NCBI GenBank assembly: GCA_044892525.1
Contig: CM097885.1
Location: 158,968,001-159,032,000 of the forward strand
Direction of reading: 5' to 3'
From: Schmidtea polychroa
Lineage: Eukaryota
DNA length: 64,000 nucleotides
Made by a program: the position numbers and the translations under genes
Notes under the pieces: generated by a model
Databases searched by the model: none
Told to the model about the DNA's origin: nothing
Seen by the model: the letters and a program-made list of their open reading frames with translations, nothing else
Shown: positions 25,658 through 64,000 of the stretch, piece after piece
Position numbering within the stretch: the stretch's first letter is position 1
Layout: each line of letters begins with the position of its first letter

Positions 25658-27646
25658 CACCTAACTGCGAAAGTTAACATTGTCTATAATATACGTTGGT
25701 GTGCACACCACATGAGGTGAGTCACCAATTATATGACAATGTTAACTTAATTTCATTTTTTCAATTTTTCAAAAATCGTTTTAAGGTAAGTTTTTGAATT
25801 GAAGTAATTTTTAGGACTTGAATTTTGATTTTATATAATTATGAGAATATTATTCAAGTTCTTAAATATTACTGTTAGTCATCTTTTATAATTTATCATT
25901 TATAAATATATTAATAATTAAATTTCAGGTGTTTTTTTAGGAAATTTATGATATTTTATGCATTAATATGGAATTATTTCGCTAAAATGTAAGTTAGATA
26001 TTTTTATATTTATAAATAAATAAAATTAATCACCAAACACATTTATTTTTTTAAGACATTTAGGGAAAAATCGGCGCACATGAATGAAATAGTTTTTAAA
26101 TTTTTATAATCTTCTTTCTGCAGCTCATTTTCGATGGCTTCTTTGACGATGTCAAATCTGCTTGGGAAGGACATTGAACTGAATCCATTTGTCCTTGATA
26201 TTACTTTCTGATGCTGCCTTTGATTTTACTAAACACGCTTTCTATTGGATTGAGGAATGGGCTATATGGTGGCAGGTGTTCTATATAATTATTCGGAGAA
26301 ATTGCTCCACTATGAATTGAAGCATTGTCATGAATGAGATGGTATCCTGTCCCATTCAATTTTATACTTAATTCATTAATAAAATTTTGGTATGTATCCT
26401 TTTTGTAGGATCCTACAATTAATTGGTGATGAATTGCACCTTTCACACCTATTGCTAACAGAAATGACATGTTTTGTCCTCGATTATTTGAAACTATGGA
26501 GTATATTCTTTCTCCTTTTTTCTTCCTTCCGTAGGTTTGTGTAGTCCACGTATTGAAGCCGCATTCATCAATATAAACGATATTTTTATCTCGCCAGACT
26601 TCTTCGAGAAAACGCGTGACATACTCCATTCGGATTTGAAGTACGCGATCTGAATTTCTTGCTTCCACACATGGCCTTACCTTTTTAACCGTTATTAAGT
26701 AATTTTTTAGAAATCTTGAAATAGCAGTTGTGGATGCCGAGCAATTTTTTTGTAAAAGGAAAATTCGCATTTTTTCTGACGTTGCATAAAAATTGGCTTC
26801 GACAAAATCCAACAAATTATTTCCCTGTTCTTCTGAAATAATTTGTTTTCTGCCACTTCTTTTTCCTTTTGTAATTTCGGCATATTTCTTATATTTGTAA
26901 ATTATTGAAATAATTGAATTTTTGGGGATTCCGAGCAATCTTCCAAATTCTTTATAATTGTCCCCATTTTCAAATGCATTAATAAGCCGAATTTTGTCAT
27001 TGTCTGTAATTCTTTGAAAATATTAATTTGTTAAAATAATTAATTAAAATTTACGATTTGCGATTTTTTTTCTGCAAATTCGAAGTTGTCGAAGGACCTT
27101 CTTCAATATTTGAAATGGTACCTTCACACAAAGAAATATCTGTTATACTGTAAAATATTTTAATATTTTATATTTTAATGAATAAATCTTACATTGTCAG
27201 ATCTTCAACTTCGCAAAAAGCCACTGTGTCCTGTGAAATATCTGTAAATCTAAAGAAAGTTTATATTCTAAATTATTTTATAATTAAATCTTACGATGTA
27301 TCTTCTTTTTTTCCCTATAGCTCAACGTAGAGCAGTCAGAATCTGATTCAAAAGTTTTTTTGTACATAACTTTTTAAATAATTTTAAAATATTGATATGT
27401 TAATTATATGTTAATCAATGTGAATTTCGCATGAAAACACTTTACTTAATTTTGTATGTATTTTTCATTATGTGTGCTGTGCTTGTATGCTTAATTATTT
27501 TCTCTCACTTTTTAGATTCCTATAATAAATATGGTAAATTTCGCAGCATTAAATTTCTACACACAGGTAAGTTTGTGTGTTCCTATAATATATATTTATT
27601 GATTTTTTTTTAGATTGTAGATAATGTTATATTTCGCAGTTAGGTG
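25658..27646 (-). mobile_element. Tc1/IS630-superfamily DNA transposon
   Basis: ~30-bp TIRs CACCTAACTGCGAAAGTTAACATTGTCT / AGATAATGTTATATTTCGCAGTTAGGTG, each flanked by TA; transposase inside. Confidence 0.88.
26201..27020 (-). pseudogene. Tc1-like DDE transposase, C-terminus frameshifted
   Basis: HTH region, YIDECGFN, IHDNASIH, LPPYSPFLNPIE; the frame extends upstream of the track start (RITDNDKIRLINAFENG) and the C-terminal tail continues in another frame. Confidence 0.85.
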
Positions 27647-34145: not shown

Positions 34146-35541
34146 ATGGTAAATATTTAAATTGATTGTTGAGTCCATATTGTTTTTCAAAATATTTAGG
34201 AATCATTAAACAAGAAAGCAGTTGAAAATTTCTGTGAGTATTTGAAATGTGAAACTGTCCATCCAAATCCGGATTATTCGAAAGCTGTTGAATTTCTTAC
34301 ATCCCAATCAGTTCAGTTGGGATTGGAGTTAACTGTCATTGAATTGTGCCCGAACAACCCAATAGTAATAATGAAATGGAATGGTAGAAACAATGATTTG
34401 AAAAGTGCAGTGTTCAATTCACATATTGATGTTGTACCTGTGTTCCCTGATCAATGGAAATATCCTCCTTTCTCTGCTCACATCGATGATAATGGTAACA
34501 TCTATGCTAGAGGTTCTCAAGACATGAAATGTTGTGGCAGTCAGTATTTAGAAGCAATAAGACGAATAAAATTTCATTCACCAGATTTTATACCAGAAAG
34601 AAACATTTATATTTTATTCGTACCAGATGAAGAAGTTGGTGGTAGTAAAGGAATGGAAAGGTTTGTTGAAAGTCAACAATTCAATGAAATGAATGTTAGA
34701 ATCTGAAATGGATTTTGAATGTCTAAAAGTTATTCAACTTTAGATTGGAATCGTTATGGATGAAGGTATAACAAGCACTGAGAATAAGTATCCAGTGTTT
34801 TATGGAGATAGAATTTTATGTTGGATAAAAGTTCATATCAGTGGATCTACTGGCCATGGATCCCAGTTTATTAAAAATACAGCCGGGGTTAAACTTAAAT
34901 TGATTTTGAATAAGTAAAGACAACCGGCTATAAAATACAATTTTTAATTCTCCGTTAGATTTATGAATTTCCGCGAACAAGAGGAAACTAGAATGATAGA
35001 AAATAATCTTACTCTGGGAGATGTCACAACAGTCAATCTTACTGGTGTAACTGGAGGAGTACAGCATAACGTCATTCCGTCTCCATTCACTTTGGATTTC
35101 GATATTCGAATTAGTCCAAAAAGAAATGTAGCAGAATTTAAAGCCATGCTTAATGAATGGGCAAGAGAATGTGGCGATGGAATTGAATATGAATTTGTTC
35201 AGCACCCGTCAAGCGCGTACCTCACACCGATTGATAGCAGCAACAAATGGTGGGTAGCGTTTCAATCTATATGCAATTCCCTTAATATGGAAATCATTCC
35301 ACAGATATTTCCAGCTGGAACTGATAGCAGGTTTAATTGTCTGATTTTCCGGTATTGGTTTTAATAACAGTTCAGGTTTATCCGAGAAAAAGGAATCCAT
35401 GCAATTGGGTTTTCCCCAATCAATAATACTCCGTTTCTATTGCATGACCACAATGAATGCCTCAATGTCGATACGTTCATTCATGGAATCGATTTCTATG
35501 AAAAATTGATTTTGGAATTTTCAACGATGAAATATGATTAA
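34146..35541 (+). CDS. ACY1: Aminoacylase-1 (M20 peptidase family), 5 exons: 34146-34148, 34200-34694, 34744-34913, 34959-35330, 35376-35541
   Basis: Four GT-AG introns (51, 49, 45, 45 nt) give one continuous frame with motifs TVHPNPDY, FNSHIDVVP, YARGSQDMK, PDEEVGG, MDEG, GHGS, FPAGTDSRF, GFSPINNTPFLLHDHNE. Confidence 0.94.
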
Positions 35542-36543: not shown

Positions 36544-37496
36544 TTACAAACCGAAATTACCGTCCCAGTAGTTAAGCTGTACGTCTACTAATACTGTATT
36601 CATTAAACGTTGAAATGTTGCTGGAGCATTAGTTAACCCAAAGCGTAGTCTTATATACTCATAATAACCGTCCTCAATCACAAAAGCAGTTTTTCCGCGC
36701 CCCTCTTCCATTTGGATTTGAATGTACCCTTTATTTGCATCTATAACTGTGAAATACTTAGTATCCCTAAGTTTATCATATTGTCCTAGTGCTCTCGGGA
36801 ATGGGTATGAGTCTTTTACTGTTACATCATTTAATTTACGATAATCAATGCACATTATAATTTCCCCGTTTTTCTTTCTAACTGGTACAATAGGCGATGC
36901 CCATTGTGATAAACTTTGTTTTATTACACCTGCCTCTTTTAATTCTCTAATCTGTCGCTTTATTTCCTCCCTCAATTTATACGGTACGCTGTAAAGTCTT
37001 TGTTTTATTGGTCTAACATTCTCTGTATCAATCACATGTTTGATAATATTAGTATCTCCTAAGATGAATTCATGTTTTGCAAAAAAATCGCTATATTCAT
37101 AAAGTAGTGTTTGTAGTTGTAATTGTTGTGTTTTATCATAACATTTAATATTATTAGCTCTACTCGGTTCGACCATTTGTTCACTGTTATCCCTAATCGT
37201 TGAAATTTTGCACACCTAGATTCACCTTTGTGTAATTTCCCCAATTTCGTACCTTAATGAATCTTACTGTATTCCTTTCATAGTTCGCAATTCTTATTGG
37301 AATTTTCCCATGGTTAATATTACATTATGATTCCTTGCTATTGCTGTTTCTGGCTGGAAGATGAACGTGTTCTCACGTTTAATATTGACTTTTGTCGGGA
37401 TTATATGATAGCAGGGGTATTTTAATTCGAACGCTTCTAATGGAATTACTTCTGAAAATTTTGCGTTTTAATATACTGTTTTCCGCTTGACTATAC
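36544..37496 (-). pseudogene. Ty3/gypsy pol, linker plus N-terminal RT (downstream part of the interrupted element)
   Basis: SQWASPIVPVRKKNG...MCIDYRKLNDVT...GKTAF...FGLTNAPATFQRLMN; the upstream linker IPIRIANY...GTKLGK is frameshifted; truncated before YxDD. Confidence 0.92.
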
Positions 37497-37538
37497 TGGT
37501 GGGTTACAGGTGGTCGAATGATTAAGTGCTGTTACCAG

Positions 37539-39101
37539 CAGGGCTGTGGAGTCGTATCAAAATGGACCAACTCCGACTCCGACTCCGACTCCGACTCCGA
37601 CCTAGGTCTAACATGTATAAGATCTTTTTTTTTATTTAATACTATTAAATTTAGGTTTTTAAAAAATGAGCAAAAAATAAGTTAAATACAAAACAAATCT
37701 TTTTTAAAATATTATATTGTTTTATTCTTTGATCATAATTTTTTAATTTTTAAAATATATTTCTTAAAAATAAAATTGCTTCAATCAAATCTTCTTTAAG
37801 CAATGCACGCAGGTCTGACTTAATTATTTTCAGAGCAGAGAACAATCTTTCAACACTGACTTGCGTTGGCGGTAAAGCGGTTACAATTCTAGCTACATTT
37901 TGAATAATTTTTGGGTACACATCAATAGCTTCTTGGACGTTCAATTTCGATGATCGATCATATTTTTCAACTTCCTCCAAAGCGGTAAAAAACTCATTTT
38001 TAAACTTCTGCTCTTCTGTATCTGGTTCCTTTTCATGATATCGCTTTCGTTTTATAAGATCCAATTGATTTAAATATTTTTCAAAATCCACATCTTCATT
38101 TGAACTGGAAGAAACTGATTCCTGACTGGAGGTGATGTTAAAATGCTCGATCTGTGTTTCACGATTTAGTGCCGGAAAACATTTGATGCGAACGGTGATT
38201 TGATAGAGCGTTTCTTTGGCTTTTGCAATATGAAGGTCATTTAGTAATATTCGGCTCATTGGATCAATATAAATAGCGGCTAATAAAATTTCATTTTGCA
38301 AAAGCAGTAGTTCCCTTTTATTCATGGAAGATATAATAGCACTGGAAATCGGTTCATCAGTGCGGGACAACTGATAAATTAAGTTTTTCCACTCAAAAAA
38401 GAAGGTCCCAGGAGTTATATCTTCAGTTTGTAATTTTTTAGAATTTCCCATCTGATGTAATTGAAAAATGCTTAAGTAATGCCGATTTTAATTTTTTATC
38501 CATGTTGAGGCCTTTGAAAATACTAAATTTTTAACTGCAAATATTAAAAACAATACTATTAAACTCGAAACTTATTAAAGTAATTGCAAATAAATAATTT
38601 AAACACAACTTACGTTTTTAATGCACACAAAAAAAACTTTATTTAACTTCCCTACAACAAAAAATTTCACGATGTAGTTTTGTATTTATTAATAATTTCA
38701 GTTGTTGTCTAGTTTATTTTAAAAAAATTACTAATGCTCTTTAATTAAGATCAGCATGTATTTATACCAAAATTAAACTAGGATAATAATAAATTTATAT
38801 GGGTTTTAGAATTATTTGTAATTTTCTTATATTTACCTGTCTGACAACCGTTTTTTAAAAATATTCTTAGAGATTCTTAGAAAAGCAAAAGGTAAAAATT
38901 GTTTATTAAATAATTCTGAAAAAGATAATTTAATTGCTATACAAAATCCTAAAAATGTTGAAAATTCCTCTTAAAATTTTAAATTTTACTCGGAGTCGGA
39001 GTCGCTTCTGTTAACTCGACTCCGACTCCAGCTCCGACTCCCCAAAAATGCACGACTCCGCGACTCCGGACTCCGACTCCAGCTCCGACTCCACAGCCCT
39101 G
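37539..39101 (-). mobile_element. Internally deleted hAT element nested in copy A
   Basis: Perfect 16-bp TIR CAGGGCTGTGGAGTCG/CGACTCCACAGCCCTG; 8-bp TSD GTTACCAG; (CCGACT)n subterminal arrays; ORF 37750-38451 ends in the hAT dimerization motif PPTQVSVERLFSALKIIKSDLR. Confidence 0.96.
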
Positions 39102-39320
39102 GTTACCAGCGTAACCCAACATGCAACATTAGTTTCCGCTTGGTACCCGTTGAGTAATCAACGTTGGTACTGTACCAAGGGGTTGAATACTCGCAAAAAG
39201 TGAGCGCATCAAAGCACTATAATTGTCGAGTACTCCATGGGTTCACGGACTACCGATAGAAGGTGTGTGTCCGATTTCTCAGGTCCCTTTATCAAAATTG
39301 TTTTCCCAACCTTACACACA
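39102..39320. ncRNA. Conserved hairpin-rich terminal block of copy A (candidate structured RNA/ssDNA element)
   Basis: Closely similar to 63168-63390; several stems conserved, one compensatory pair; no known RNA family recognised. Confidence 0.4.
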
Positions 39321-39472
39321 AGCTCTCGTTTCTCAGGCAATCATAAGCATCTCAGACATTATCTAACTCTACAAAATACGTATTATTGTAACAACAAAAA
39401 AAATAAATATTATTTTAGTACTACAAGGTATATCAAACACACTACAAAATTACATAATCATGGAGTAAAAGT

Positions 39473-39942
39473 TCAACTCGGCCGGTTGGTGGGGCCGGTT
39501 AGTCCCGTCGTAGACGTTTGCGACGAACCCGCTTGCCTTTCGTATTCAGCCAGTCTGGCCTTCTTTAATTTTTCACGGATGTTTCGCCCAAGCCGTTTTC
39601 TTTTGGGCTTATTTTCAGCGGCTGGGGGATATATGGTTGCGAGTTCAACGGCCAGTGGCCTTATTTGTCTTGCTGCGGATTCCTGCACAAACTGCTCATT
39701 TCGTTCGGTTTCGAGCACCCGCACCTGCACCTTCAGGGCGCGAATCTCCATTTGGTCCTGAGCGGCCTGTGTCTGCAGCTGGAGGATCTGGGCGGTTTTC
39801 TTCTTCATGGCTTCGGGACTAAACCAGGTCCCTTCGAACTCTCGACATTTTCCCTTCAACTTGTCCACCCGGACCCGGAGTTCGTCAGCACGTTGTTGGG
39901 CCTGCTCCCGATCCTTCCGGAGATTTTCCATTAACTTGTACA
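39473..39942 (-). CDS. Coiled-coil protein of unknown family (ORF2 of copy A)
   Basis: Open GC-rich frame after a TTTTAG acceptor; KCREFEGTWFSPEAMKK motif shared with the 44860 and 52044 copies; basic C-terminus KPKRKRLGR. Confidence 0.7.
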
Positions 39943-40166
39943 CTAAAACACAACAGTTGTCAGTTTCCTTCATATCGAATAAAATGAAAATGTAAATTAT
40001 TAATTAACATTAGCAATTCCCGGTTACGACCTTATTGCACTTATTCAATTTACTATATGAATTCTAAGACTCCAAAAAAGAAATTTCCTTTATTTAAATA
40101 ATACACATTAGAAGATAGCGGTGCTATAGATATAATGACTAAAATAAGTTATTTATAGTCTAATAA

Positions 40167-40532
40167 TCACGCTTGGCGTTTGCGGGGCCTTCCTCTTTTT
40201 CTCGGGGGTACCGTGGCCTCCTCCAATTCTTCCAGGGGCACTCCCTCCCTTTCTGCCCGGATTTGCATCTCTATCTTCTTAAGCCGGATCTGAGCGGCTT
40301 TCACATCCCAGGCCGCTTGATCTCGGGCCTCCTGTAACCGGTTATTCTCCGGCTCCACCTTCACCCATACCGGGGCATCTACTTCGGGGCCCGTCCGGAT
40401 TACTCGATCTGCGCAATCCAGGTCCCGTCCCTGACCCCACCGATGTATATGGTACCAGATGTACCGGGTCCGGAGTCGGGTGATCGTCTGCTGGTCAGTA
40501 CCCTCGTCACTGCTAGAGCTGGATTGAGACAT
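40167..40532 (-). CDS. AT-hook protein of unknown family (ORF1 of copy A), 121 aa
   Basis: ATG at 40532 two nt after a TTACAG acceptor; ITRLRTRYIWYHIHRW motif; C-terminal PRKRGRPRK AT-hook; homologous to 51094-51558. Confidence 0.75.
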   Translation of the reverse strand: MSQSSSSSDEGTDQQTITRLRTRYIWYHIHRWGQGRDLDCADRVIRTGPEVDAPVWVKVEPENNRLQEARDQAAWDVKAAQIRLKKIEMQIRAEREGVPLEELEEATVPPRKRGRPRKRQA

Positions 40533-41792
40533 GTCTGTAACATAAACATTAAGACCCATACATAACCACTGTGACTTATAAATAGACGTCACAACAAAAC
40601 ATACAGAAATTTCTTGTTTAAAATCAATAATACTTAACTACTAAATTTATTATAATTAATATAAATACTTCTAACATACCCAAATTTTATTTAATATATT
40701 AATATACTTTTTAATTAAGTAAATTAAGGAAAAATTTACTAAAGTTAAGTGTTAACGTTAAAAAATTCGTACCCGAACCGAAAATCTCCAAAAATGGTTT
40801 TGTTTAAAATTATTATTTTAATCATTCGGCATTTATTTACCACTGGTTGGTAATTTGGATTTTATAAGTTAAAATTTTTGAATTTTTTAGGTAATTTTTA
40901 GGTAAAAGTGAATATCTCCACTAAATGCGGTTACGCCAGGCGAAGGGTACTAGTGGTGAGCTCAGTCTCTTGCTCACTTACTCTTCCCCTGGTTGTATTC
41001 GTTATAAGTGGTAAAATCATCATTTATCCGTTTGTGGTAATCTATTTCTTGATCTTATATACCTAATTTAGGGACAATTTGATGATTATTTTCCCCAGCT
41101 GGAGCTATCGAGGTTCAGTTTCAGCAGTTCGTCCTATGACTCTTGATCAGGAAATCATGGCTTGTATTCATAAAGATTGTGTGAGTTGATTGATTGAAAG
41201 GGAAAAATTAATATTGAATCTTTTTTTAGTTGCAATTGACGACTTGTAGCCTTGCACGAACATTGATTAACTTGTTTGTATTCTGTGCGCTTTCAATATT
41301 CTATTGTCGTTTCAATATGAGATTTTTATTTGTCTAAATTTATTGCAATTGTCAAATTTTATTAGTCAGTTATTATTGTAAACAAATTTATTCGAACAAA
41401 GTAGTAATATTTAATGAATTTATAAATGTGAGCAACCGTTAAACATGATAAATATACTAAAGTCGATGAATGAAAATACTATTACCATAATATCTGCATG
41501 TAATTTGCTTTTATATGAAGAAACCCAAATATTTGGTTGGTTTGTAATGTGGTTCTAATTTAGAAATTTTTCATCTAAGTCATTTGGTATTAATGAACAT
41601 GAAGCAGTTATGGTTAATATGCTTTTGCCTACTTTAATTGAATTTATAAAGAAGTTGTATGTTTGTTTTTCGTTCGGGATTTAAGGGTCAGATTGCATAG
41701 TTGCTCATACGTCCTCACCCATATCCCCCGGTGACTTGAATAATGGTAAGGGGGGGTGTTGCTAAAAATAGTCTTCAGAATTCTGATCCCTC

Positions 41793-41803
41793 TGATTGGC
41801 TCG
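41793..41803 (-). promoter_or_regulatory. CCAAT box (CGAGCCAATCA) in copy A
   Basis: Identical 11-mer at 49836-49846 in copy B; both lie ~1.25 kb upstream of the ORF1 ATG. Confidence 0.55.
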
Positions 41804-42399
41804 GAGGGTCGTTTCTAAATTTAATTTCTTGGGGAAATCCTAAAATCAATATCAGATTGGGATATTAACTTTGACAAGTAATAATAATTGTTAATAATAA
41901 TAATATATAATCAGTGTAGTATTTATACATTTACTAATATATTCCACCATGACTAAGTGTATATGTATATATATATCTACAATTAAATTATATATATTAA
42001 GAACAATATTAGTAAAAATAATAGTCAAGTCATATATAACTGATCATTAATAGTAATAATAGCAACAATAGAGATAANNNNNNNNNNNNNNNNNNNNNNN
42101 NNNNNNNNNNNNNNNNNNNNNNNNNNNNNNNNNNNNNNNNNNNNNNNNNNNNNNNNNNNNNNNNNNNNNNNNNNNNNNNNNNNNNNNNNNNNNNNNNNNN
42201 NNNNNNNNNNGATAATAAGAATAATGGTAATAATGATGGTAATATTAGCATTAACAGCAATAATATTAGGGTTAATATAATTTTACATGGTACAATTCGA
42301 AGCTTATATTTCTTATTTTAAAGATTTCTATTCTATGATTTAGAAAGTTACTTTTGGTAATTTATAAATTTCTGTTTCTAATTTAAATTTTATATTTTT

Positions 42400-42665
42400 C
42401 AATTTACACATTTATACGTTATAATTTCTAATTGTATATATTATAGTGTATAACTTAATAATTTATGATTTTATACTTTATATTTTATAATTTTATATTT
42501 TATAATTTATAATTTTATGTTTTACGATTCAGTGGTTTAGATTTTATAATTTATAGTTATATATTTCGTAGTTCATAATTTTATATTTAATAATTCACGA
42601 TTTTTAGGTTTTATACTTTAGGATTTTATATTTCATAATTTATGATTTTATAATTTATACTTTAT
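42400..42665. repeat. Degenerate (ATAATTTTATATTT)-like low-complexity tandem array inside copy A
   Basis: Repeated TTTTATA units. Confidence 0.7.
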
Positions 42666-44372
42666 GAATTTCTAGTCAGCTTTACATGACTTTTTATAAG
42701 TTACTTTTGTGGGATCATCATAGTTTTCTAAAAGGTTTTCAAGTTTGTCGGTAGCTATTCCCAGACTCTATTCCCGAAGTTCCACGTTTATGTATAATTA
42801 ATAAAGAAACATTTCCGATACCCAAAATCTATAGCTCCTAATCGGGATTTTCCATTAATGACTTACATCAATATAATTAGCTCTAAGATCTTACAACTAT
42901 TTATACAATTATAGCTAAATATTTATACATTAATGAATGTTTAAAGTGGGAATTGGATTTAAAATCCTTACATTTACTTTGAATCAGCATAGCTAGATTA
43001 AGTTGTACCTGCACGTATGCCGAATATCTTTCTTATCTCTATTACTTTATCAAAATTTTCTATTACAAAATTTAGTTCGGCATATGTCCAAGTATAATTG
43101 AAATTACTGTGATGAATCAACTAGCTACATTAATGTGAGTGCAGAATTGTGTAATTTTAGGTACGAGCTCTGCTCAAATTAGAACCTTAGTGTAGAGTTA
43201 TTATTCAGGATTTTAAGTTTTGATTTTAAATATGTGTTGCATAGAAGGTCGGGAAGAATATTGCTTCCATGGCCCCACTGTGACCACTTCCACAAACCTT
43301 AGTGTTGAGTGTTGAGTCAACCATTTACGATCGACCTTACATAAATACAAAGAGTCAGGCGTAGGGTTTCCTCGACCTAACTCCATGGCAGGACCATGAA
43401 GTAGTTCGACCTCCGGCTGACCCGAACAAAAAGGGTTTTTATAGATAATAATAATGCATGTGTGAATGAGAAGTAGAATTTAAGAATTATATGCAGGACC
43501 GATCAGAGACGTACTCGGACGCCGCTGATCCGTCGAGAATTACTAGAACATAAAATCTTAATAATATTCTTAATGAACAAAAGATTGATATTAATATAAT
43601 TACGTAGCATAAAATTACATCAAATCAAAAGGCTTACTAATAATTTTCCAGAAAATTCTTCAGCAAAATATTGGCATAAAGATTGATTGTGACTGAAACG
43701 TGTCAGTATATATACATATTTAGTACACGTGTATGTATCGATGCATTAAAACAAACTCGAATTCTTTTTATTCCAGAATTTTCTATTTTGCGATTTTGAT
43801 ATTTTTAATGGCAATTTTTGTGCCATAATTTTTGTTTTTATTTTTATATTTTTATTTTTTAATTATTTTTCGTTAAATTGACGTCCATGATGGATTTGAA
43901 ACGGTTCCAGAACATTCTATTTTACTTTTAATTTAATTTTTATTCTAACGGGTGTTTTTATGAATTTCTTTTTAAGATTTTTTATTTTTATTACTAATTT
44001 ATTTATTTTTTCCTAAATTTTATTGTTTAAGGTAGCTTTTATGATGGTCATCACCATTTTTATGGAATGTTCTGGGTTTTTCTGGAATTTTTTACTGTTT
44101 TTACCATCTTTTAAGTTATTCGAGTTTGTTTTTTGTAACTCTATGTTTATTTGGTTATTTTTGAGTTAGATTTTGCATAACTTCTTGCTTTTGTATAATT
44201 TTATTTAATTTCTGTGTTTATTTTTTTTGTTACTTTCTCCTTTAATTACCATTGTTTATTTGGTGTAGTTTTGATATATTTAGTTATACTTCTTGCTTTT
44301 TGCATGCTGTGTACTTACACATTTCAGTCGCAATTAGATATTTTGGGTCTAGAAGTCAGTTCTAGCCCAACA

Positions 44373-44700
44373 ATACTGTCTGTTAAATCGAATACAGTGT
44401 TTTAATTTGTGGAGTATGTCCATTCCTAAGACACAAAAGCATTTACATTCTCTAACTACTTTAAAAACATGTTCCACCACTTGATCTGAGAAGTGGACTG
44501 TTAATTATATATCGCCTTTTAACGGTATAAAATGGTATGATAGTGAGATTACTCTATCTTTCGTACTTAATATATTTCTCTTTTTATATTCCGTTAATTG
44601 GTCTTCCCTAATCATATAAGCTGCTGCACCAGTATCGTGGTGATAGGTCTAACCTCATCGTCCAACATATCTTTTATTTATCATGCCGGTCCATTCATTA
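44373..44700 (-). pseudogene. Ty3/gypsy aspartic protease (upstream part of the element split by copy A)
   Basis: DTGA active-site codons at 44625-44636 and CVLGMDIL at ~44418-44435; across the ATAC TSD it continues as DLTDSIVKRKTVY*NAKFSEVIPLEAFELK into 37496 and below. Confidence 0.8.
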
Positions 44701-44859
44701 TTTTTTTTCTTTGTTCTGAATATTTACCCTATTATTATCCTTCCCTACTATATAATATCCCATTTCCTAATACTTATACCACCGGTGCTTCGAGTTAATT
44801 TAAATAAAAATAATTGGCAACATATATATATATATATATAATGAAAAAGTTTCGCCAGG

Positions 44860-45251
44860 ATGTGGCTCGTAAAGGCCGAGTCTCTGGTGCAGAAATGCAG
44901 AAGGCTTGAAGCAACATGGTTCCGACTAGAGCATGTCCACAAATTACAAAAGAGAATCGAACCCGTTGAAAAGTCTCAGGTCGAAGATCAGGGAATCATC
45001 TCAAGATCACAATCCTATAGCACACACAAAAAACTATTGAGCTTCGTGCTGAGATACATACAGATGCAGGAGTGGGTCGAGTGCCGTCCTACTTAGAAAC
45101 CGAATTGTTTCCGACTGTCACGCCTTTCCTTTCCATGATTTCAACGGCGGCTCCAGTCATCAAGAAACCATGCAAATCCAAGCCCGGAAAGTTCGAGAGG
45201 AAAAAGATTCGAGAATTGAAGAGAGATCAGAAGGGCAAGCAGAAGAAATAA
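44860..45251 (+). pseudogene. Third, frameshifted copy of the ORF2 coiled-coil gene (copy C fragment)
   Basis: VQKCRRLEATWFRLE...KSQVEDQGII, then in another frame VTPFLSMISTAAPVIKKPCKSKPGK*; preceded by (TA)n. Confidence 0.65.
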
Positions 45252-48200
45252 TGACACTAACCTAAATATCTATGATGAATGTATTTTTGTTTAATCGCTT
45301 GCTCTTTATTATAATTAAGTATTTAATATTGATATTCTGTTTGATTTTTATTACTTTGATTAAACTTAAACAAATAATTAAATTTGGAAAATTTCTTCAC
45401 TAAGTCATATTAAATTCGATAATAAATCAACTTAAAATTAAGTAAAATTGAGGTAGCCCGTTTTCATCTGAGGCCAAAATAAAATTATAGTCCTGGAAAT
45501 ATTTGGATATCGACGATAAATTTGATTTAGTATTAAACTGTATATAAAAGTGTCAAACTTATAACTATGTGATATGAACCACTACAATATAATATATTAG
45601 CGAAATCACGGATAATTTGACAGAAGGATAACTGACAACCTAACACTTTCGAATTCTTGAAATCTCGTTTTGCTTGAAAGTTTTAATATAGGAGTCCATG
45701 GTAGATGGTATTCACTAAAGAATAGGATAAATCACAAAACGATGAACAGGAATGTAGTGTGGTGTTAATTTATTGATTGTAACTTTTTAATTGTAATTAC
45801 GTTTTGTTGCCTGCAGTGTTTTTTTGAAGATTTACAGGATTTTGAATCCCCAATCAAAAAAACTATATAGCAATAATTTACCATAGTAAATTATCACTAA
45901 AGGATTATTGAAAAATAAATAAAAACTATTTAAAATTAATAAACGATAAACCTGATGAATAAACGATTATAAGAGAAGCCAGACCATAGACGAAATTAGA
46001 TTAGAACAAAGAAATTCATCCATAGGTATTAACATTAAGTAAAATCAGAAGAACATTAAAAATTAAACAGTTCTAGAAGAAAATTTTATTTTAGACCCAA
46101 AATTTCCCCGACTATCATAGGTTGAATAATATCTATATCTATTCTAAAACTATTAGAACTGAAAAACAGAAATAGATTTGCTGTGCTTTTTGAAACAAAA
46201 CACTTCAGTTATTACAGGAACAACTGTACCTCTACCAATCCTGATAAAACAAAGAAACTTCGTCATCTATCGTATTTTAGAGAAATATCAGAAAACTATT
46301 GTAAACCGAACTCTAGAGAAATCTGATCTAGAAGTTTTAAACAACCATTATTGTAAGAAGATCGAAACTAATACATATCTTGACAAATTAAAAGTATTCG
46401 ATTGAAAGTCTAATCTCATCTAGAAGAAAAACTGCAGGTCATACAATATTTTTATACAGTTGTTGGGCTAGAACTGATTTCTAGACCCAAAACTCTAAAT
46501 TGTGACTGAGGTGCGTTGGTACATAGCACGCAAATAGCAAGAAGTTCAGTTAAATATAAAAATACATCAAATAAACAATATTAGTTAAAAGGAAAAACAA
46601 CAAAAATATAAACACAGAAATTAAATAAAATGGTACAAATGCAAGAAGTAGTGCAAGAAACTAACTCAAATATAACAAAGAAACATAAAAATTACAAAAA
46701 ACAGACTCGAATAGCTTCGAAGATGGTAAAACATTAAAAATTCTAGGAAAATTCCAGAACAGTTCATAAGAATGGTGACAGCCATCATAAAAGCCACACA
46801 GAGCAATAAAAGTTATCAAAAATAAATAAATTAGTCGTAAAAATAAAAATTTGAAAAAGAAAATCAAGAAAAACATCATAAAAATAAAAAATTAATTTTA
46901 AATTTATATGGAATGTTCTGGAATTGTTCCAAATCCATCATGGAGGTAAATTTAGCAAAAAATAATTGGAAAATAAAAACTTAAAAATAAAACTAAAAAT
47001 TATGGCATAAAAATTGCCATTAAAAATATCAAAAATAGAAAATTCTAGAATTAAAAGAATTCGGGTTTGTTTTAATGCATCAATACATACACGTGTACTT
47101 GCACACACAAAAATAGGTATCTATACCAACGCATTTTAGTCATAAAAACATTCTTTATGCCAAAAAAACCTCTTGACAATATTTGGAACAACCACGAATA
47201 GTAAGGGATTTTTTGATTGTTTTATTGTTATAATTGTATTATTATAAATTTATATGATTATCCTCATGTTATTATTAATATTACCATGACTGAGTTTAAC
47301 TTTCGATTTTTTTGTTTTATTTATGCTAAACAAGAGTGATCAACGTCGTCGTAGACGTATTTAGCTCGAGACATTGACCAGCCTTGTTGCCAACTTAAAA
47401 TCCTTTTCATGCACAAAAGAATGGGTCTACGACCCCAAATACACTAAAATTAAAGTTTTCATAGCCAGAGGTCGCCACGAACTAATGGTGTTCAACCAGG
47501 AGTAGGGCGAGTAAAATCCATCTTGGTAGTTGGCATACTCACAGGGACTATGCGGACGAATTAAATTTTGGGATATTAATCATGGGTACATATCACACGT
47601 ATTCAGTGTAATCGGGAAAATACGTAAATTTTAATTAATTTGACCTTGTCATAATTTACATATGTAATCTGTACACTCAACTTCATTATAGAGAACACCA
47701 CATTAGCGAAATCTAAACGGGAAATATCCCATACTCAATATTATACAAAGACACTCAGTTAATTGCACGAAATTGCTCAAATGTTTAATATGCTTAATAT
47801 CGAACATTATTAATATACTCTAATTGATATTATTTATAATTATGGTTAATCAAAAATTTAATAATTAAAAACCCGAATTTAGACCAAGTTCAATAAACCC
47901 AAGATATTGTGTAATTATCCAGTTTACGATACCTTAATTTTGATAAATTTAATACCCTTGTAAATGCTGTTAACCGAACCTTACATAAGGTCATAAAAAA
48001 TTAATTGGAAACATAGTATGGTAGGTCCATCATTTTATATTTTCCTTATATGGCCTCCTATAATTCATATTTAGAGAATCCTAGCCAGAATTTAATAGCT
48101 CAAAGGCTCTTCGAATAAATTATAATTCTAATATACTATTTCAGAAAACTATATTTTGGTTCAAAAACCCAAAATCCCCATCGAAGTAACCGACCCTTTC

Positions 48201-49330
48201 CTTACATGGTGTAGTGAAAATTAATATGAGAAGGCTAATAGTGTAACGACCTAAAATTAATTTGTAATGGACCACCTATCATTATATAGTATTGTAAAAA
48301 TCAAATGTCTAGAAAACCTAATTGTTATCCAAAAGCATGATGCACATAGAAATAGCCCGGAATAGATTATCCTTTCTCTCCTTTAGGATCATAACCACTA
48401 GCTAAAATTATAATCGGCAGCTTAATGTCGCCAGAACTACCTCATACGTTTTTTATACTCACCCCTCCAGGACTATGTCATTTAACTAATACCCAAACGT
48501 ACACGATCTTTATTTTTCACATTAGCATGTAGATTTTTGCACTTGGTAAAATATAATCCTTATTTCGTGTCTATTTGATTAATTATAAAATAATTCTTAA
48601 ATTATTTCGTCAAAACTTTTATGTTTATTGTCATACATATTATATACAGGTTATATAAAAACTTTTAAAACATTCAAAGTCCAACCGTAATTTCTCTACA
48701 ATTATGATGATGTTATGTATACATTTTGATTATATTATCTTTGTAATATAAATTTTAGAAAATCTTTCAAAACTGACCCTTTGAACCATATAATCATTAA
48801 TGGTTGCCCCAAAGTTCAAGTTAATTTATAAATTCGTTTATATTTCGTTTAAAAATTAAATTGAACAAATTTTTATAACAGAAACATGATAATCTAGTTT
48901 ATCTCCAGGCAAAAACCCTTATATTTCACTGGAAAAAATATAATTTCTCATTTTTCATAATCGACCCCCCCCCCAACTTGCATGTAGGTAGTAATCGTAA
49001 GGCTTTTGCGTTAATGTTAATATCATTATTTAATAATATTTACATCTTATTATGAACAATTAATATAATCCAATTTATTCGATAGAAATGGAATTTAAGA
49101 ATAATACGAATAACTTGATTAATTTTCTCCTTATTTTTAACCCTTAATTGACCTAGCACCCCTCCTTACCCTACTGATTCATCATATAATTTAACTGACC
49201 TGATTCGTCGATTCCCGAAATGTTGCAACGCGGTTTTTTTTCACTTTTCACAATTTAATACTATTTAGATTTTATTAGGAATGATTAGTATATTAAAATT
49301 GATCGAATAAAATGGACTTGAATTCTACTG

Positions 49331-49539
49331 CCGTAGAGTGCCGAATAGTATACCTCCCCAAATAGTGTACTAGTGGTATACTATTTTTAAAAAAGTGCTA
49401 AATATTAAAGTGCTAAATAGTGTACCATGGTATAATAAACCAAATAGTGTATCTGGTATAATATTTGGATTTCAAAGTAAATCAAAATTTTGGCGTTTTC
49501 CATATAGTGTACCATGGTATTAAAATCGGCACTCTACGG
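49331..49539. mobile_element. pogo/Tc1-type MITE nested in copy B
   Basis: 14-bp TIR CCGTAGAGTGCCGA/TCGGCACTCTACGG, TA on the right (TG on the left), internal TAGTGTACCATGGTAT repeats. Confidence 0.65.
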
Positions 49540-49835
49540 TACTAATGACGCGATTAATTTCTCCTTTCGTCACCCATACCTATATAATACGATATAACAC
49601 TCCATCTTAACCCCTAAATTAAGTATATAATTTACACAAACCAATTTATCGATTTTGCCCAAACGTTACTATTAATAGAAAAGTTCAAAACCGACATTAT
49701 CGATTTTCTTTTCCTTATTGTAAAATTTAGCCAATAGAACCGCTTCTATTAATAGAAGCAACCCTGCAAAATAAGGGGTGCCCTCATCAAACTTACCCTA
49801 GCTGACCAAGTGGACGATGCATGCGCTCTCGTAAA

Positions 49836-50005
49836 CGAGCCAATCACCACCGACCAAGGCAGCAGGAACCCCAATCTTCGTATAAACCAATGACACCCTG
49901 GCAAATTTAACCCCTGTTACCCCAGAAGTAGATCCCATGCATGTCAAAAAGGGCGAGGGACCTTTTTCCCAGGATCGACTGCTTAAACTAATATATATAA
50001 CCCCT
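49836..50005 (+). promoter_or_regulatory. CCAAT boxes and TATA-like site in copy B
   Basis: CGAGCCAATCA at 49836, further CCAAT motifs nearby, ATATATATAA at ~49992. Confidence 0.5.
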
Positions 50006-51093
50006 TATAACCATAGACGAGGAATAATGAGGAACAACGTATGTTACAATTATAATCGTTAATTACTTAAATTCAAATGAAAAATTAACAAAATTACTTA
50101 ATAACTATTGCTTTACGATAAAACGAACTATCTAATTAAATTCAACAAGAGCGAAAAATATATTCAACAAAAATTATAAAACTTATTTAAGAAATCATTT
50201 CAGTCACTGTAAAGTCTTACCGATGATGTAGAAAAGCGAATGAAAAGAGGGCCTCTCTAAATTCCCCTCGGATTCAAATTTTTATCCTGAATTCCCACTG
50301 CACGTATAAGCATGGGCACGAAAATTGGGATGACCAAAAATTGGGTCACAAATGAATCACAAGTTGGGTGAGTCGGCATATTTTGGACTATCATTAGGCA
50401 ACGGACGTTTCGAAAAATTATCCAAATAAACTTCACGCTTAAACTGGAGGTTGTGAAGATTGAATTTCTAAAAATTAAACGAATGGAAAATTTAAAAATT
50501 TTTTTGTTACTTGTCACATTAAGATGATGGTAGAGCCACCTATAACCCCTAAAGGTAGGCATTGCTAGGGACCGAATATAATTCGCGGCACGGAACAATA
50601 TCCCTCCCGTAGTGGATCCTAGCAGCATGGTTTTTTTAATAATGTTTTAAATAATTCTTTTTAAATAAGGTTCATGCATTAAAGCAACAAATTAAATTTT
50701 TGAATAAGTTAAACAAGAGTCATTTAAATATGCGATCTTAAGTTTATATTACAAAATTAAAATTTTTCCATTCCTACTTTATCCACTCTTAATTCGTTAA
50801 GCCTAAATTTATTTATCCTGAATTTAAATACACGAACTTTAACTTAGTAATTGGTAACTTATAAATCTTGAATTTAGTAATTCTCAAACTAATTTAAGCT
50901 AAATCAAAAATCAAATATGGAAATTAATTAGCAACTTAAATCCACTTTAACTACGAAAAAATCATTGTCGATTGGATGAAATGCGTACCATGTTTGAATT
51001 TAAAATGTAATTGTGTATTTAAACGTCCTGGGGTAACCGAACGTAGATGGATGAACAAAGATTCGTTTTAATATCTCTCTTATCATCACAGGC

Positions 51094-51558
51094 ATGCCTA
51101 ACATCAGACCAGAAGACGGCCACGCGAGCCCCTCGGCATCTGCATCAGGACTCAGCACAACCCAAGAGGAGGCAGACGAATCCACCAGACTGAGCCGAGA
51201 TGAAGAAATCACCCGACTGAGGTCCCGGTGGATCTGGTGCAAGATTCACGACTGGACCTACCAGAATGTGTTCCCGGTGATCCCGAAGGTAGAGCCCTTC
51301 GTCAACGCCACCTCCCTCGCTCTGATCGAAGCCTTTGAAAATGTCAAGGCTGCCATGGATCAACTACAACGGCTCGAGGATGCAACCCTAGCCGGCGAAC
51401 TGGAGGACATCGACGGGTACGCTAGGTTGCAATGCTACCCGGAACGGACAGCTACCATTCGCCGTGGCGTGGAACGCCCAAGGAGTCAATCACGGGGTTC
51501 CGAGCAAGCACGAAGGCGGGGGCGTCCGCGGAAGAACCGTCTCACATCGGATAGGTGA
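51094..51558 (+). CDS. AT-hook protein of unknown family (ORF1 of copy B), 154 aa
   Basis: ATG two nt after a CACAG acceptor; ITRLRSRWIWCKIHDW, KVEP and VKAA motifs; C-terminal RRRGRPRK. Confidence 0.75.
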   Translation: MPNIRPEDGHASPSASASGLSTTQEEADESTRLSRDEEITRLRSRWIWCKIHDWTYQNVFPVIPKVEPFVNATSLALIEAFENVKAAMDQLQRLEDATLAGELEDIDGYARLQCYPERTATIRRGVERPRSQSRGSEQARRRGRPRKNRLTSDR

Positions 51559-52043
51559 CCGTTGGACTGAATCATAACCCCTGTGACTAAACCTCATTTG
51601 GGCGCGTCTCCTTGTGGCGACTTTCCTTGCCAAATGGAAAACTAGTGTAGTTTTAGTTTGTCTTGACTTCGTTATAATCCATGTACGATGTACTATTATT
51701 TGATATCTTGTTTTGATTTAAGTGTTATCATTGTGTAATTTTGTAGTGATTTTATTATAATCCACGTGTGAAGTGTTATTCCTTTGTATTTTGTTTATTA
51801 ATCCGATTGTTTAGAATTCATCATAAAATACGCTTAAAATGGTATTATCTTATATTTTGTCTACTATCCCCAACCTCATAGCGTTTAGTAAGATCCATAA
51901 GGCTAAGTCTGGGGTTCAAATCTGCATTAATGTGAGGTTGCGACTTGGGGATTGTGGCTTATACTGCGAGGGGAGTAGCAGTAGGGCGTGGAAACTTGAC
52001 GAGAGTACGAGAAGTCATATTATTAATTACGTTTTTGTTTTAG

Positions 52044-52427
52044 TGATAAAGCTCTTAGAAGATATGCCAAGAAGATATATCAAGGCCCACTGCCGAAATT
52101 TCGGAAGTACTTGGTTCCCGCCAGCCGAGATGAAGAAGCGCCTGAAACTGATTTCGCAGTTGCAGTTGCAGAGTGTGAGAATTGGAAACCCAGATCCACC
52201 AACAACCAATCGAGTAAGACACGATCTGCAAGATCCAACCGATGACCGAAATTTTCTGCAAACCGAAGGGACTCGTATCTTCCATCCTTCCTAGGAAGAA
52301 AATCGGACCGGGTAAGGCTGCTTGCGCTAGAATACGACAGGCCAGCCTGGCCCAAACACCAAGTCAATCGATTCCCCAAGGACTACCCCGAAGGAGTCTA
52401 CCAGAGCCTCATGAACTCGTGATATAA
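52044..52427 (+). pseudogene. Frameshifted ORF2 coiled-coil gene of copy B
   Basis: After a TTTTAG acceptor: IKLLEDM...HCRNFGSTWFPPAEMKKRLKLISQLQLQS; homology continues in shifted frames (RELET, KIQPM, RKKIG, RLLALEYDR). Confidence 0.7.
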
Positions 52428-52463
52428 AGGGTGTGATCTCAAATAAAAAATCATTGTTGTTAT

Positions 52464-53022
52464 GGCTGACCGTCAACTCGCCAGAAAAAAACTCGCCAAT
52501 GAATTAAATATTTTTAAAATATTTTTAAAATTTATAATTAACCCTAATGCAATTTATCAAAAGCCAAAGAGGAAAGTCAATACTTGTATTAGATGGGTTT
52601 TTATACAACCAGGATGCAACCAGGACTTTTTATTGCGCTTGCATTTGTTCCCCTTAGTAAAGTAGAACAGTATTATTTTTTAATTCTTGAATATTGCTGT
52701 AATGAAAACATACCAGAAATCGCAGAATTTAGAAATTACTTTGAAAGAATGTACATTGGATGTTATAAAGATAGTATAAAAATCTTACGAAAAAATATAT
52801 AGTTGCGGAGATACAGTAGTCTTACCTTATATAGTAGTAGACTATCCGACAGGATGTTTTGTACCCCTAGGGGTACAGCGTCTAAGGGTATAGGTCACAA
52901 GGGTATACGTACATTCAACACTTTTTTTAGAATTTTAAATAAAAATTTTTATTTTAAATATTTTATTTTTTCTGGCGAGTTGACGGATAAATTTTTTCTG
53001 GCGAGTTTCCGTCAAATCGCCT
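52464..53022 (+). mobile_element. Mutator (MULE)-like remnant
   Basis: Imperfect TIRs built of AACTCGCCAGAAAAAA units; internal ALAFVPLSKVE...EFRNYFERMYIG resembles the MULE transposase C-terminus; no clean TSD. Confidence 0.6.
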
Positions 53023-53707
53023 ATAATTGTCACAAACAAATATTTTTGCGGAGACTCTGTTGGTATCAACAATTTTTTCCCCACAGTATAATCACATTAT
53101 CTTATAACATTATTATCGAATAAGTACCAAAGTTTATTCAATCATAGTAAGGAATGAGTTTGAATTATAACTGGGCTTAGCAAAGTAATAAAGTTAATAA
53201 AGTCAATAAATTCACTTGAAAAAGGCAGTGCCGAAAATTCGTGAGTATCAACAAACATCGATATATTACTGATTTATAGTCTTCAAACTCTCTTTTTAAT
53301 TCAATGGATAAAATAATCAGTGGTGAAATTGGAAGAAATATAAGTTCTTATAATAATAACTTTATATTAATAACTTTTCTCAATAATTACCTCAACAAGC
53401 ATCATTAAATCGTATAAGATACTGTGCAAATATAGAATGTTTTAATATTTTTATTTTTAAATTTACTTTAAACTTTTCGATAACATTTATATTTTATTTA
53501 TATTATTTATTTATTCTCGCAAAATATTTATTAATATAAATTTAATAATGACATTTAATTCGAAATGTTGAAAAACAAAACATTGTTTGATAAGATAATT
53601 TTAAAAGGTGTTTAAATGTATCAATATTAGAATAAATTATTGTTATATAGTAACTTCATTTAAGACTATTTAAAGTTAATACAAGGAACATCTTGGATCA
53701 GATTTTA

Positions 53708-63127: not shown

Positions 63128-64000
63128 TGGTAGGTTACTGGTGGTCAAATATTTATTCTTTACTGCTGTTACCAGCGTAACCCAAAATACAACGTTGTTT
63201 TACCGCTTGATACCCGTTGAGTAATCAACGTTGGTACTGTATCAAGTGGGTGAGTACTCGCAAAAAGTGAGCGCACCAACGGCTCTATAATTGTCGGTTA
63301 CTCTATGGGTCGACGGACTACCGTTATAAGGTATGTGTCCGATTTACTCAGGCCCCTTACCGAAATTGTTTTCCCAAACACCCTCATACAAATTTTCAGT
63401 TTTGGTTCGATTAATATACGTAGTTTGAGACGCGGTCTCGTAATGCTACTAATTACCCCATCAAAGAATAATCTTCTGCAATTTATTGATCAACTATCAG
63501 TGTTCACCATTCATCAATCGCAAACATTCGCGTTTATTTCAACAATCTTTACAAATTAAGGGAAAAGAAAACGGAGAATGTTCGAGAACTGAATTAGTTA
63601 AATTAGATCTGGTCTTTACACTTGAGTACGGAATAGGTGATGTCCATGTAAAATACGTTATTTCGCTCGTCATTACTAGTTCCACACCCGTTACTACATC
63701 CCTTAACATTATTGATCGAAAGTTCCTCATTATTGTGCATTGAGAAGTTCATACGCACGCCACGTTATAGCAAAACTAGTTTAATGTCTCTCGAAGCTAA
63801 TTATATCACCCTGCCGATTATTGTTACCAAAATTCATGATAATGTATTACTGAAGTTATATTATTAATCATATCTTTATTATTTCAAACAACGCGCCATA
63901 ACCGTCGTTATAGTGACGCTTGCCTGTGTGTGATTACATAACGGCATTTTTGCTTATGTGTGCTAGGGCGACTCCTCAGACAGATTTGCAGGTGTGTACT
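63128..64000 (-). mobile_element. Copy D: terminal block of another family member, extends beyond the window
   Basis: Begins TGGTAGGTTAC (cf. TGGTGGGTTAC at 37497) and aligns with 37497-37538 plus 39110-39320 for ~260 bp. Confidence 0.78.

Follow-up and report, generated by a model that had tools for sequence, protein, structure and literature searches.

A conserved AT-hook-like reading frame inside the long terminal repeats of Burro-type giant gypsy elements in Schmidtea polychroa

The window analysed here, a whole stretch of 64,000 nucleotides from Schmidtea polychroa (contig CM097885.1 of GCA_044892525.1, positions 158,968,001 to 159,032,000), contains two short GC-rich reading frames that encode related proteins. 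What are these frames, and what might their products do for the DNA that carries them? A preliminary description, made from the letters of the window, took them for paralogs of an orphan AT-hook protein family encoded inside an LTR-like unit.

40167..40532, minus strand: ORF A, 121 amino acids from its second ATG.
51094..51558, plus strand: ORF B, the type-B allele of ORF A, 154 amino acids, with an AG at 51090-51091.

Both frames were indeed open, and each had a GC content of 58% against 29% for the window. Counted from an ATG farther upstream, at 40559, the ORF A frame is 130 amino acids long. The two products are homologous (BLASTP, 30/91 identical, 33%, E 3e-9), but they are copies of a high-copy repeat and not a two-member pair of paralogs. 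We scored 150 genome matches for each frame, from 2560 first-look candidates for ORF A and 2042 for ORF B, figures that are not copy numbers; 13 of the best 150 type-A matches had an internal stop. The DNA surrounding the frames had been called diverged. No blastn match links it, but the 5' ends of the LTRs in which the frames lie are 81% alike over 722 bases, in inverted orientation.

The placement inside an LTR-like unit held for both frames, each of which lies within the LTR of a Burro-type element.

37497..44372, minus strand: type-A solo LTR of a Burro-type giant gypsy element, with TG...CA ends, about 5.3 kb without its insertion.
37539..39101, no strand: hAT-type DNA transposon inside the end of the type-A LTR, with an 8-bp target duplication (PF05699, E 7e-5).
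42375..42671, no strand: AT-rich tandem repeats within the type-A LTR, period about 22, a candidate AT-hook target.
46461..52464, plus strand: type-B Burro LTR, interrupted, its LTR start at 46461.
63128..63377, minus strand: isolated terminal block of a third Burro LTR.

The type-A LTR is 95-97% alike to both LTRs of one full-length element. As the 4-bp target duplication ATAC flanks it on both sides (37493-37496 and 44373-44376), it is a solo LTR. A search of the type-B LTR (46461..52464) for its 3' terminal block found none. The two differently typed LTRs stand back to back (43671-44372 and 46461-47163), inverted and about 2 kb apart. A reverse transcriptase at 36544-37176 was considered as part of the Burro element and rejected, as it is 41% identical to the Burro enzyme and lies outside the target duplication. 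By eye, we take other frames in the window to be a hAT-type transposase (12883-14826), a Tc1-like fragment (26201-26770), an aminoacylase-like gene in pieces (34371-35364) and a pogo-like fragment (56254-56712).

Full-length copies identified the host element. In four type-A and three type-B LTR pairs (one type-B pair among these seven is an old one, with LTRs just 90% alike) the frame sits in both direct repeats, 1.0-1.7 kb from their 3' end and in sense relative to the long interior frames. Genome matches to the two proteins often came in same-strand pairs 29-46 kb apart, and the LTR pairs lie 31-44 kb apart with LTRs of 4.3-5.9 kb, giving a total length above 30 kb. A Pfam scan of one element interior identified a CCHC gag, MATH, a viral fusion-protein env, protease, reverse transcriptase, RNase H and integrase, together with ankyrin, TRAF, BIR and RING modules, with the core genes in one orientation; tblastn matched these domains on other elements. 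The same scan gave no Pfam match for BCL2, SUMO-like or dUTPase motifs. The LTRs have TG...CA ends, 4-bp target duplications and a primer-binding site, which we take to resemble a tRNA-Pro site. Exact junctions between LTR and primer-binding site numbered 412 in the genome, against 0 for the reversed control.

Planarian Burro/GYPSM1 elements are described as longer than 30 kb, with 5-6 kb LTRs, a gag with CCHC, MATH, an env between gag and pol, PR-RT-RH-IN, ankyrin, BIR and accessory ORFs (sections of PMC6431247). The elements found here are alike in length, multi-kb LTRs, the order gag-MATH-env-PR-RT-RH-IN, ankyrin and BIR. The host element is a Burro-type giant gypsy element by size and domain layout as described there, not by a sequence match to Burro1-4 or GYPSM1. 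The section of that account compared with our data includes no LTR protein gene, AT-hook, cassette types or non-autonomous family. Two features of the element ends stood out. An 8-base spacer between LTR end and primer-binding site is conserved (L066:8363-8390; 412 junctions), and the stretch before the 3' LTR (L069:7387-7412) has no polypurine run, yet is common to autonomous and non-autonomous elements.

ORF A is under purifying selection, in line with the preliminary description of a selected, element-encoded factor. In 32 intact type-A ORFs, 31 of them sampled through the non-coding LTR-primer junction, dN/dS (Nei-Gojobori) was 0.11-0.26 by divergence bin and not near 1 across copies; the 496 pairs are non-independent and 56 are saturated, and requiring an intact frame lowers the ratio slightly. 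Five pairs gave Fisher p values of 2e-4 to 1e-23, all at or below 4e-4. Variable columns by codon position were 56/47/105, the third position being the most variable, and 15 young copies differed by 3 amino-acid and 7 silent changes. The type-B ratio was 0.15-0.34, from 14 ORFs picked as best matches and thus biased, with one close pair at 0.73. Whole-gene dN/dS of ORF A showed no sign of positive selection.

These patterns bear on the idea that ORF A is a passenger, either a piece of gag or of a host gene, or a GC-rich cis element that happens to read as protein. Non-autonomous copies spread without ORF A, as a passenger would have it. Yet dN/dS is well under 1 with third positions varying most, the frame, start and acceptor are kept at saturated dS, and Pfam, PDB and database searches gave no match, so that this reading is already largely refuted and we give it hardly any credence.

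Searches with ORF A alone and with a 28-row alignment, made among proteins of near length, identified no homolog. A profile search of 1.84 billion representatives gave 2 matches: one was a tandem-repeat artefact, and the other protein was matched only through RGRP repeats. None of 594 pattern matches in metagenome contigs was confirmed, and PDB sequences gave 0 matches. No gag or host-protein match, let alone a confident one of the kind the preliminary description had considered, appeared in Pfam, PDB or the databases. Foldseek, which it had proposed for an AlphaFold model, returned no fold match at E 0.001 for the models of A or its neighbour ORF C; the ESM Atlas gave nothing usable for A and nothing at 0.9 for C. 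As the searched libraries may contain few planarian repeats, these negatives apply outside this genome and not to other planarians.

The ORF A product has an acidic Ser-rich start, a W-rich helix (11-31), a psi-KxE motif (57-60), a long helix (64-96) and an AT-hook-like C-terminus. Its AlphaFold model, of low confidence (pLDDT 65, pTM 0.29), places the helices at 11-31 and 64-96 and leaves the tail loose. Between types, no block is better conserved than the W-rich helix.

40179..40205, minus strand: codons for the AT-hook-like PRKRGRPRK, residues 110-118 of ORF A, 10.8 bits, under the Pfam cut-off.

We counted motifs in copies from best-match and junction-sampled loci whose frame runs at least 70 residues past the core. 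RGRP was present in 57/59 type-A and 27/29 type-B copies (84/88 together) and in 18/24 of a third type. The longer [RK]RGRP[RK][KR] was found in 55/59 type-A and 26/29 type-B copies, and R-G-x-P was invariant or almost so. An S/T-P precedes the hook in 29/59 type-A copies. The AT-hook proposed earlier therefore kept its RGRP core and basic flanks, but it scores below the Pfam threshold (PF02178; 10.8, 8.9 and 12.3 bits against a gathering value of 17.4, with 1/4 copies unmatched), a cut-off that applies to the whole protein and so puts a lone hook at a disadvantage. The proposed SUMO consensus fitted type A, where psi-K-x-E/D occurs in 58/59 copies with x variable, but 0/29 type-B copies have it; P-K-x-E is found in 27/29 of these. 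The motifs said to be shared, ITRLR[TS]R[YW]IWxxIHxW, KVEP, VKAA and RGRPRK, are in both window copies, but VKAA was rejected as a family motif, occurring in 1/59 type-A and 7/29 type-B copies, and is a coincidence.

On the strength of the motif, it is plausible that the ORF A product is a nuclear AT-hook DNA-binding factor. It resembles HMGA-type proteins in the R-G-R-P core of PF02178, the basic flanks, the acidic Ser-rich end and, in the type-A copies that have it, the S/T-P ahead of the hook. HMGA proteins have three AT-hooks, whereas A has one, below the Pfam cut-off, together with a W-rich helix and a long helix that have no homolog.

ORF A is accompanied by a second reading frame and by candidate splice signals.

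40535..40536, minus strand: AG as candidate 3' splice acceptor, two bases ahead of the ORF A ATG.
39473..39942, minus strand: ORF C, the second LTR gene, coding for a coiled coil and basic tail, with a TG start after the AG at 39943-39944.
52044..52294, plus strand: decayed type-B ORF C, with its AG/TG start at 52042-52045, an internal deletion and a divergent end.

Apart from rare decayed copies, all three types have an AG 1-2 bases ahead of the ORF A ATG, while the sequence farther upstream is unalignable. ORF C lies downstream of ORF A. Its conserved part starts with AG/TG in 115/117 copies that share no methionine, and the G at what would be the free third position of a valine codon is invariant. 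This points to an ATG formed by splicing to an exon ending in A, and it is likely that splicing builds the start codon of ORF C. No donor for this joint was identified. Two other sources for the start were rejected. The lineage with a genomic ATG for ORF C was a single interrupted copy, and in spliced-leader trans-splicing the ATG in which flatworm leaders end (PMC12582326) would be out of frame with the TG.

The dN of ORF C is far below its dS. AlphaFold models its product (pLDDT 82) as three long helices, and the protein combines a coiled coil with a basic helix. ORF C looks like a second gene under selection. By eye, no pairs mixing a type-A with a type-B partner were seen among the rows listed for A and C, and predictions of an A-C complex, run without alignments, gave no answer (0.25, 0.39, 0.01). 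In contigs of four sequencing runs guessed to be RNA, compared without a DNA control, 371 from one run (X1) cover ORFs A and C, and X7 and X8, which are one sample, gave one each on ORF A, with the presumed intron little covered; we take this as a weak hint of expression. The contigs of these runs contained three joints, none at the predicted splice sites. Six internal accessory ORFs (L066:8695; L069:645, 2211, 3474, 5221, 6065), encoding RING, TRAF, BIR-RING and three products of no known kind, also have an AG 0-3 bases before their first ATG, which suggests a single splicing scheme across the whole element.

How the LTR genes are distributed was examined at 60 of the first 66 listed of the 412 junctions, all from contig C1, with 5 near-tandem neighbours and 1 locus already in the data set left out. 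An ORF A homolog was found at 36/60, of which 32 were intact with RGRP, 3 frameshifted and 1 ended without the hook. The 24 junctions without ORF A comprised 16 with other LTR types lacking both A and C, 4 truncated copies, and 4 that keep ORF C but have no A in the 3 kb read. Four of the 16, when examined, were non-autonomous elements of 15-16 kb without the env/PR/RT/IN core. As these copies also lack pol, the loss shows that A is dispensable in cis, not what it does. The non-autonomous family (L192-L200, L203-L204), whose LTR types are those of the 16 junctions, has retained the RING ORF, the end of the polyprotein and a gag that is 73-74% identical.

At least three old cassette types, with saturated synonymous sites, are carried on one nearly uniform backbone (dS about 0.1-0.3). 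In eight autonomous elements, four only partly covered and with MATH left out because its reference started in a different frame, the dS of gag, env, PR-RT and IN against one reference element was 0.12-0.33, whereas that of ORF A against the same element ran from 0.03 to saturation (98% to 38% identity), and ORF C behaved likewise. Between types whose A proteins are 38-40% identical, the integrase region is 95% identical. When autonomous types are compared, the opening 700 and closing 235 bases of their LTRs are about 74-91% alike. Saturated cassettes together with low backbone divergence indicate old cassettes on a recently homogenised backbone, a contrast that, we infer, would come about most simply by template switching. 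Downstream of the primer site, the RING ORF has diverged in type B and the third type (dS 0.8-0.9), which it has not done in other lineages of type A, suggesting that the swapped block sometimes extends into the leader.

This distribution also bears on the suggestion, which we consider improbable, that A steers insertion by tethering the pre-integration complex to chromatin rich in AT. The AT-hook-like motif, the AT-rich target duplications observed and a need for A only by or from autonomous copies would fit such a role. However, in a genome that is 71% AT, AT-rich sites are expected anyway, A is encoded outside the gag-pol polyprotein and so has no evident way into the particle, and A types as divergent as those above share almost the same integrase region.

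Candidate RNA structures were also found in the LTR itself.

40918..41011, minus strand: conserved bulged RNA hairpin of 94 bases upstream of ORF A, with a donor-like GTAAGT at 40976-40981.
50528..50635, plus strand: position of the type-B upstream hairpin, degenerate in the window copy (z -0.4; relatives z -1.3 to -5.3).
39102..39309, continuing at 37497-37538, minus strand: structured terminal block common to all LTR types, the putative R-U5.

The 94-base hairpin lies 390-480 bases upstream of ORF A and has double-sided changes in 11/24 pairs, reached in 0/500 shuffles and with slid controls at 0-3, although related sequences can beat such shuffles without structure. It is present in some, not all, lineages and in two non-autonomous types, including one outside the model that scores 53 bits. 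Over 55 sources the model gave 13 sense matches, with none in several type-A lineages, in any type B or in the non-autonomous type met most often. Covariation of the type-B hairpin is weak (1/28 pairs). As the GTAAGT lies inside the covarying hairpin, pairing could account for its conservation without splicing. Rfam gave 0 matches in 37000-53500.

A structured block of 235 bases, universal across types and with a sharp start, closes the LTR, and three further hairpins fill it. We therefore call it R-U5, which places ORFs A and C, we infer, in U3. Polyadenylation-like signals are also found downstream of A and C, so the two may instead be self-contained LTR genes or lie in R.

These hairpins raise the possibility that A, or C, is a Tat/Rev-like RNA binder whose basic motif contacts a hairpin of the element RNA to act in elongation, export or packaging. 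The covarying hairpin upstream of A, its recurrence in non-autonomous LTRs, the hairpins of the terminal block and the coiled coil and basic helix of C are in its favour. On the other side, the model failed to detect the hairpin in several lineages, type B scarcely covaries, and the basic motif of A matches an AT-hook core and not an Arg-rich RNA motif. We think this reading unlikely.

We also judge it unlikely that A is a host-manipulating nuclear effector, akin to the apoptosis and ubiquitin modules found elsewhere in Burro, with RGRPRK acting chiefly to direct localisation and a host protein as the binding partner of the W-rich helix. A localisation signal would not require a fixed GRP core, yet R-G-x-P shows little or no variation here, and whole-gene dN/dS gives no sign of positive selection. 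Such an effector would be in keeping with the TRAF, BIR, RING and MATH modules of the element (see also sections of PMC6431247), with the strong retention of the W-rich helix between types, and with the coexistence of old alleles, which is compatible with host conflict.

The reading we prefer, tentatively and at somewhat under an even chance, is that ORF A is an LTR-borne accessory gene for a small nuclear AT-hook regulator that acts in trans to keep the LTR promoter active. The protein would bind AT-rich DNA in trans through its C-terminal hook and so sustain transcription from the LTR, its long helix may oligomerise so that several hooks bind jointly, and its W-rich helix could recruit a partner. 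A and its neighbour C would each be translated from a spliced mRNA, with the ATG of C supplied by the joint, and entire cassettes would pass from one backbone to another by template switching at the 5' and 3' LTR ends that the types share. We count for this regulator the location in the LTR, the sense orientation, the purifying selection, the kept RGRP, the AG before the ATG, the absence from non-autonomous copies, the allelic types on a common backbone and the AT-rich repeats in the LTR. Against it, the single sub-threshold hook could be simply a nuclear-localisation signal, the structural model is of low confidence, and no homolog informs function. The upstream part of the LTR is 72% AT against 71% for the window, so the hook by itself would confer no specificity.

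Accessory genes in retroviral LTRs are familiar from vertebrates, where HIV nef and foamy-virus bel2 overlap U3. MMTV sag is an accessory gene in a long LTR that overlaps U3 and is expressed from a spliced mRNA (parts of PMC9147501 consulted). The genes described here are alike in position, with U3 and splicing predicted, but Sag is a membrane superantigen of a vertebrate retrovirus without homology to A, whereas here two small nuclear-looking proteins are encoded wholly within the LTR of an invertebrate gypsy element. The plant gypsy elements Grande, RIRE2 and Retand (TRP28) have conserved extra ORFs in most copies, proposed to encode nuclear DNA-binding regulators, which are mostly antisense and internal, placed between pol and the 3' LTR (sections of PMC7264820 and PMC11963269). 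A and C, unlike these, are in sense and inside the LTR, so that solo LTRs carry both genes. The host element is known, and a literature search made outside the primary Burro description, Repbase, figures and supplements found no description of genes within Burro LTRs; within that search, the pair of LTR-borne genes, the variety of cassettes and the absence of both genes from non-autonomous copies appear to be undescribed. The preliminary description had likewise made no mention of the second LTR gene, the splice signals, the different cassettes or the non-autonomous family without A and C.

No kind of LTR element larger than Burro elements is known; in planarians they are a principal target of piRNA silencing and are expressed tissue-specifically (PMC8532177). 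Two selected LTR genes are small, testable candidates for their control or for escape from silencing. Solo LTRs that keep the genes may supply the host with a high-copy chromatin protein, and old cassette alleles on a young common backbone make the part played by LTR swapping measurable. A wider picture, doubtful but worth stating, is that Burro is a complex retrovirus-like invertebrate element in which the LTR works as an exchangeable regulatory cassette of two genes. Ancient pairs of alleles, made up of an AT-hook regulator and a coiled-coil partner whose start comes from splicing, each with its own promoter region and RNA hairpin, would be shuffled onto a single recombining backbone. They would also work in trans on non-autonomous copies and be scattered over the genome in thousands of solo LTRs, possibly still expressing them.

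Several rearranged copies were met along the way. ORF A is a mosaic at L140 and L174, where its first and second halves come from different lineages. Contig C2 (133002269-133118772) has five ORF A copies at 29-kb spacing, possibly a tandem array of LTR-sharing elements. At L158 a truncated Burro LTR adjoins a long ORF that we take to be like a Polinton-type DNA polymerase. At L208:3815-5254 a 3' LTR is followed by the primer site, leader and RING ORF and then by the final 43 bases of an LTR, likely a template-switch product.
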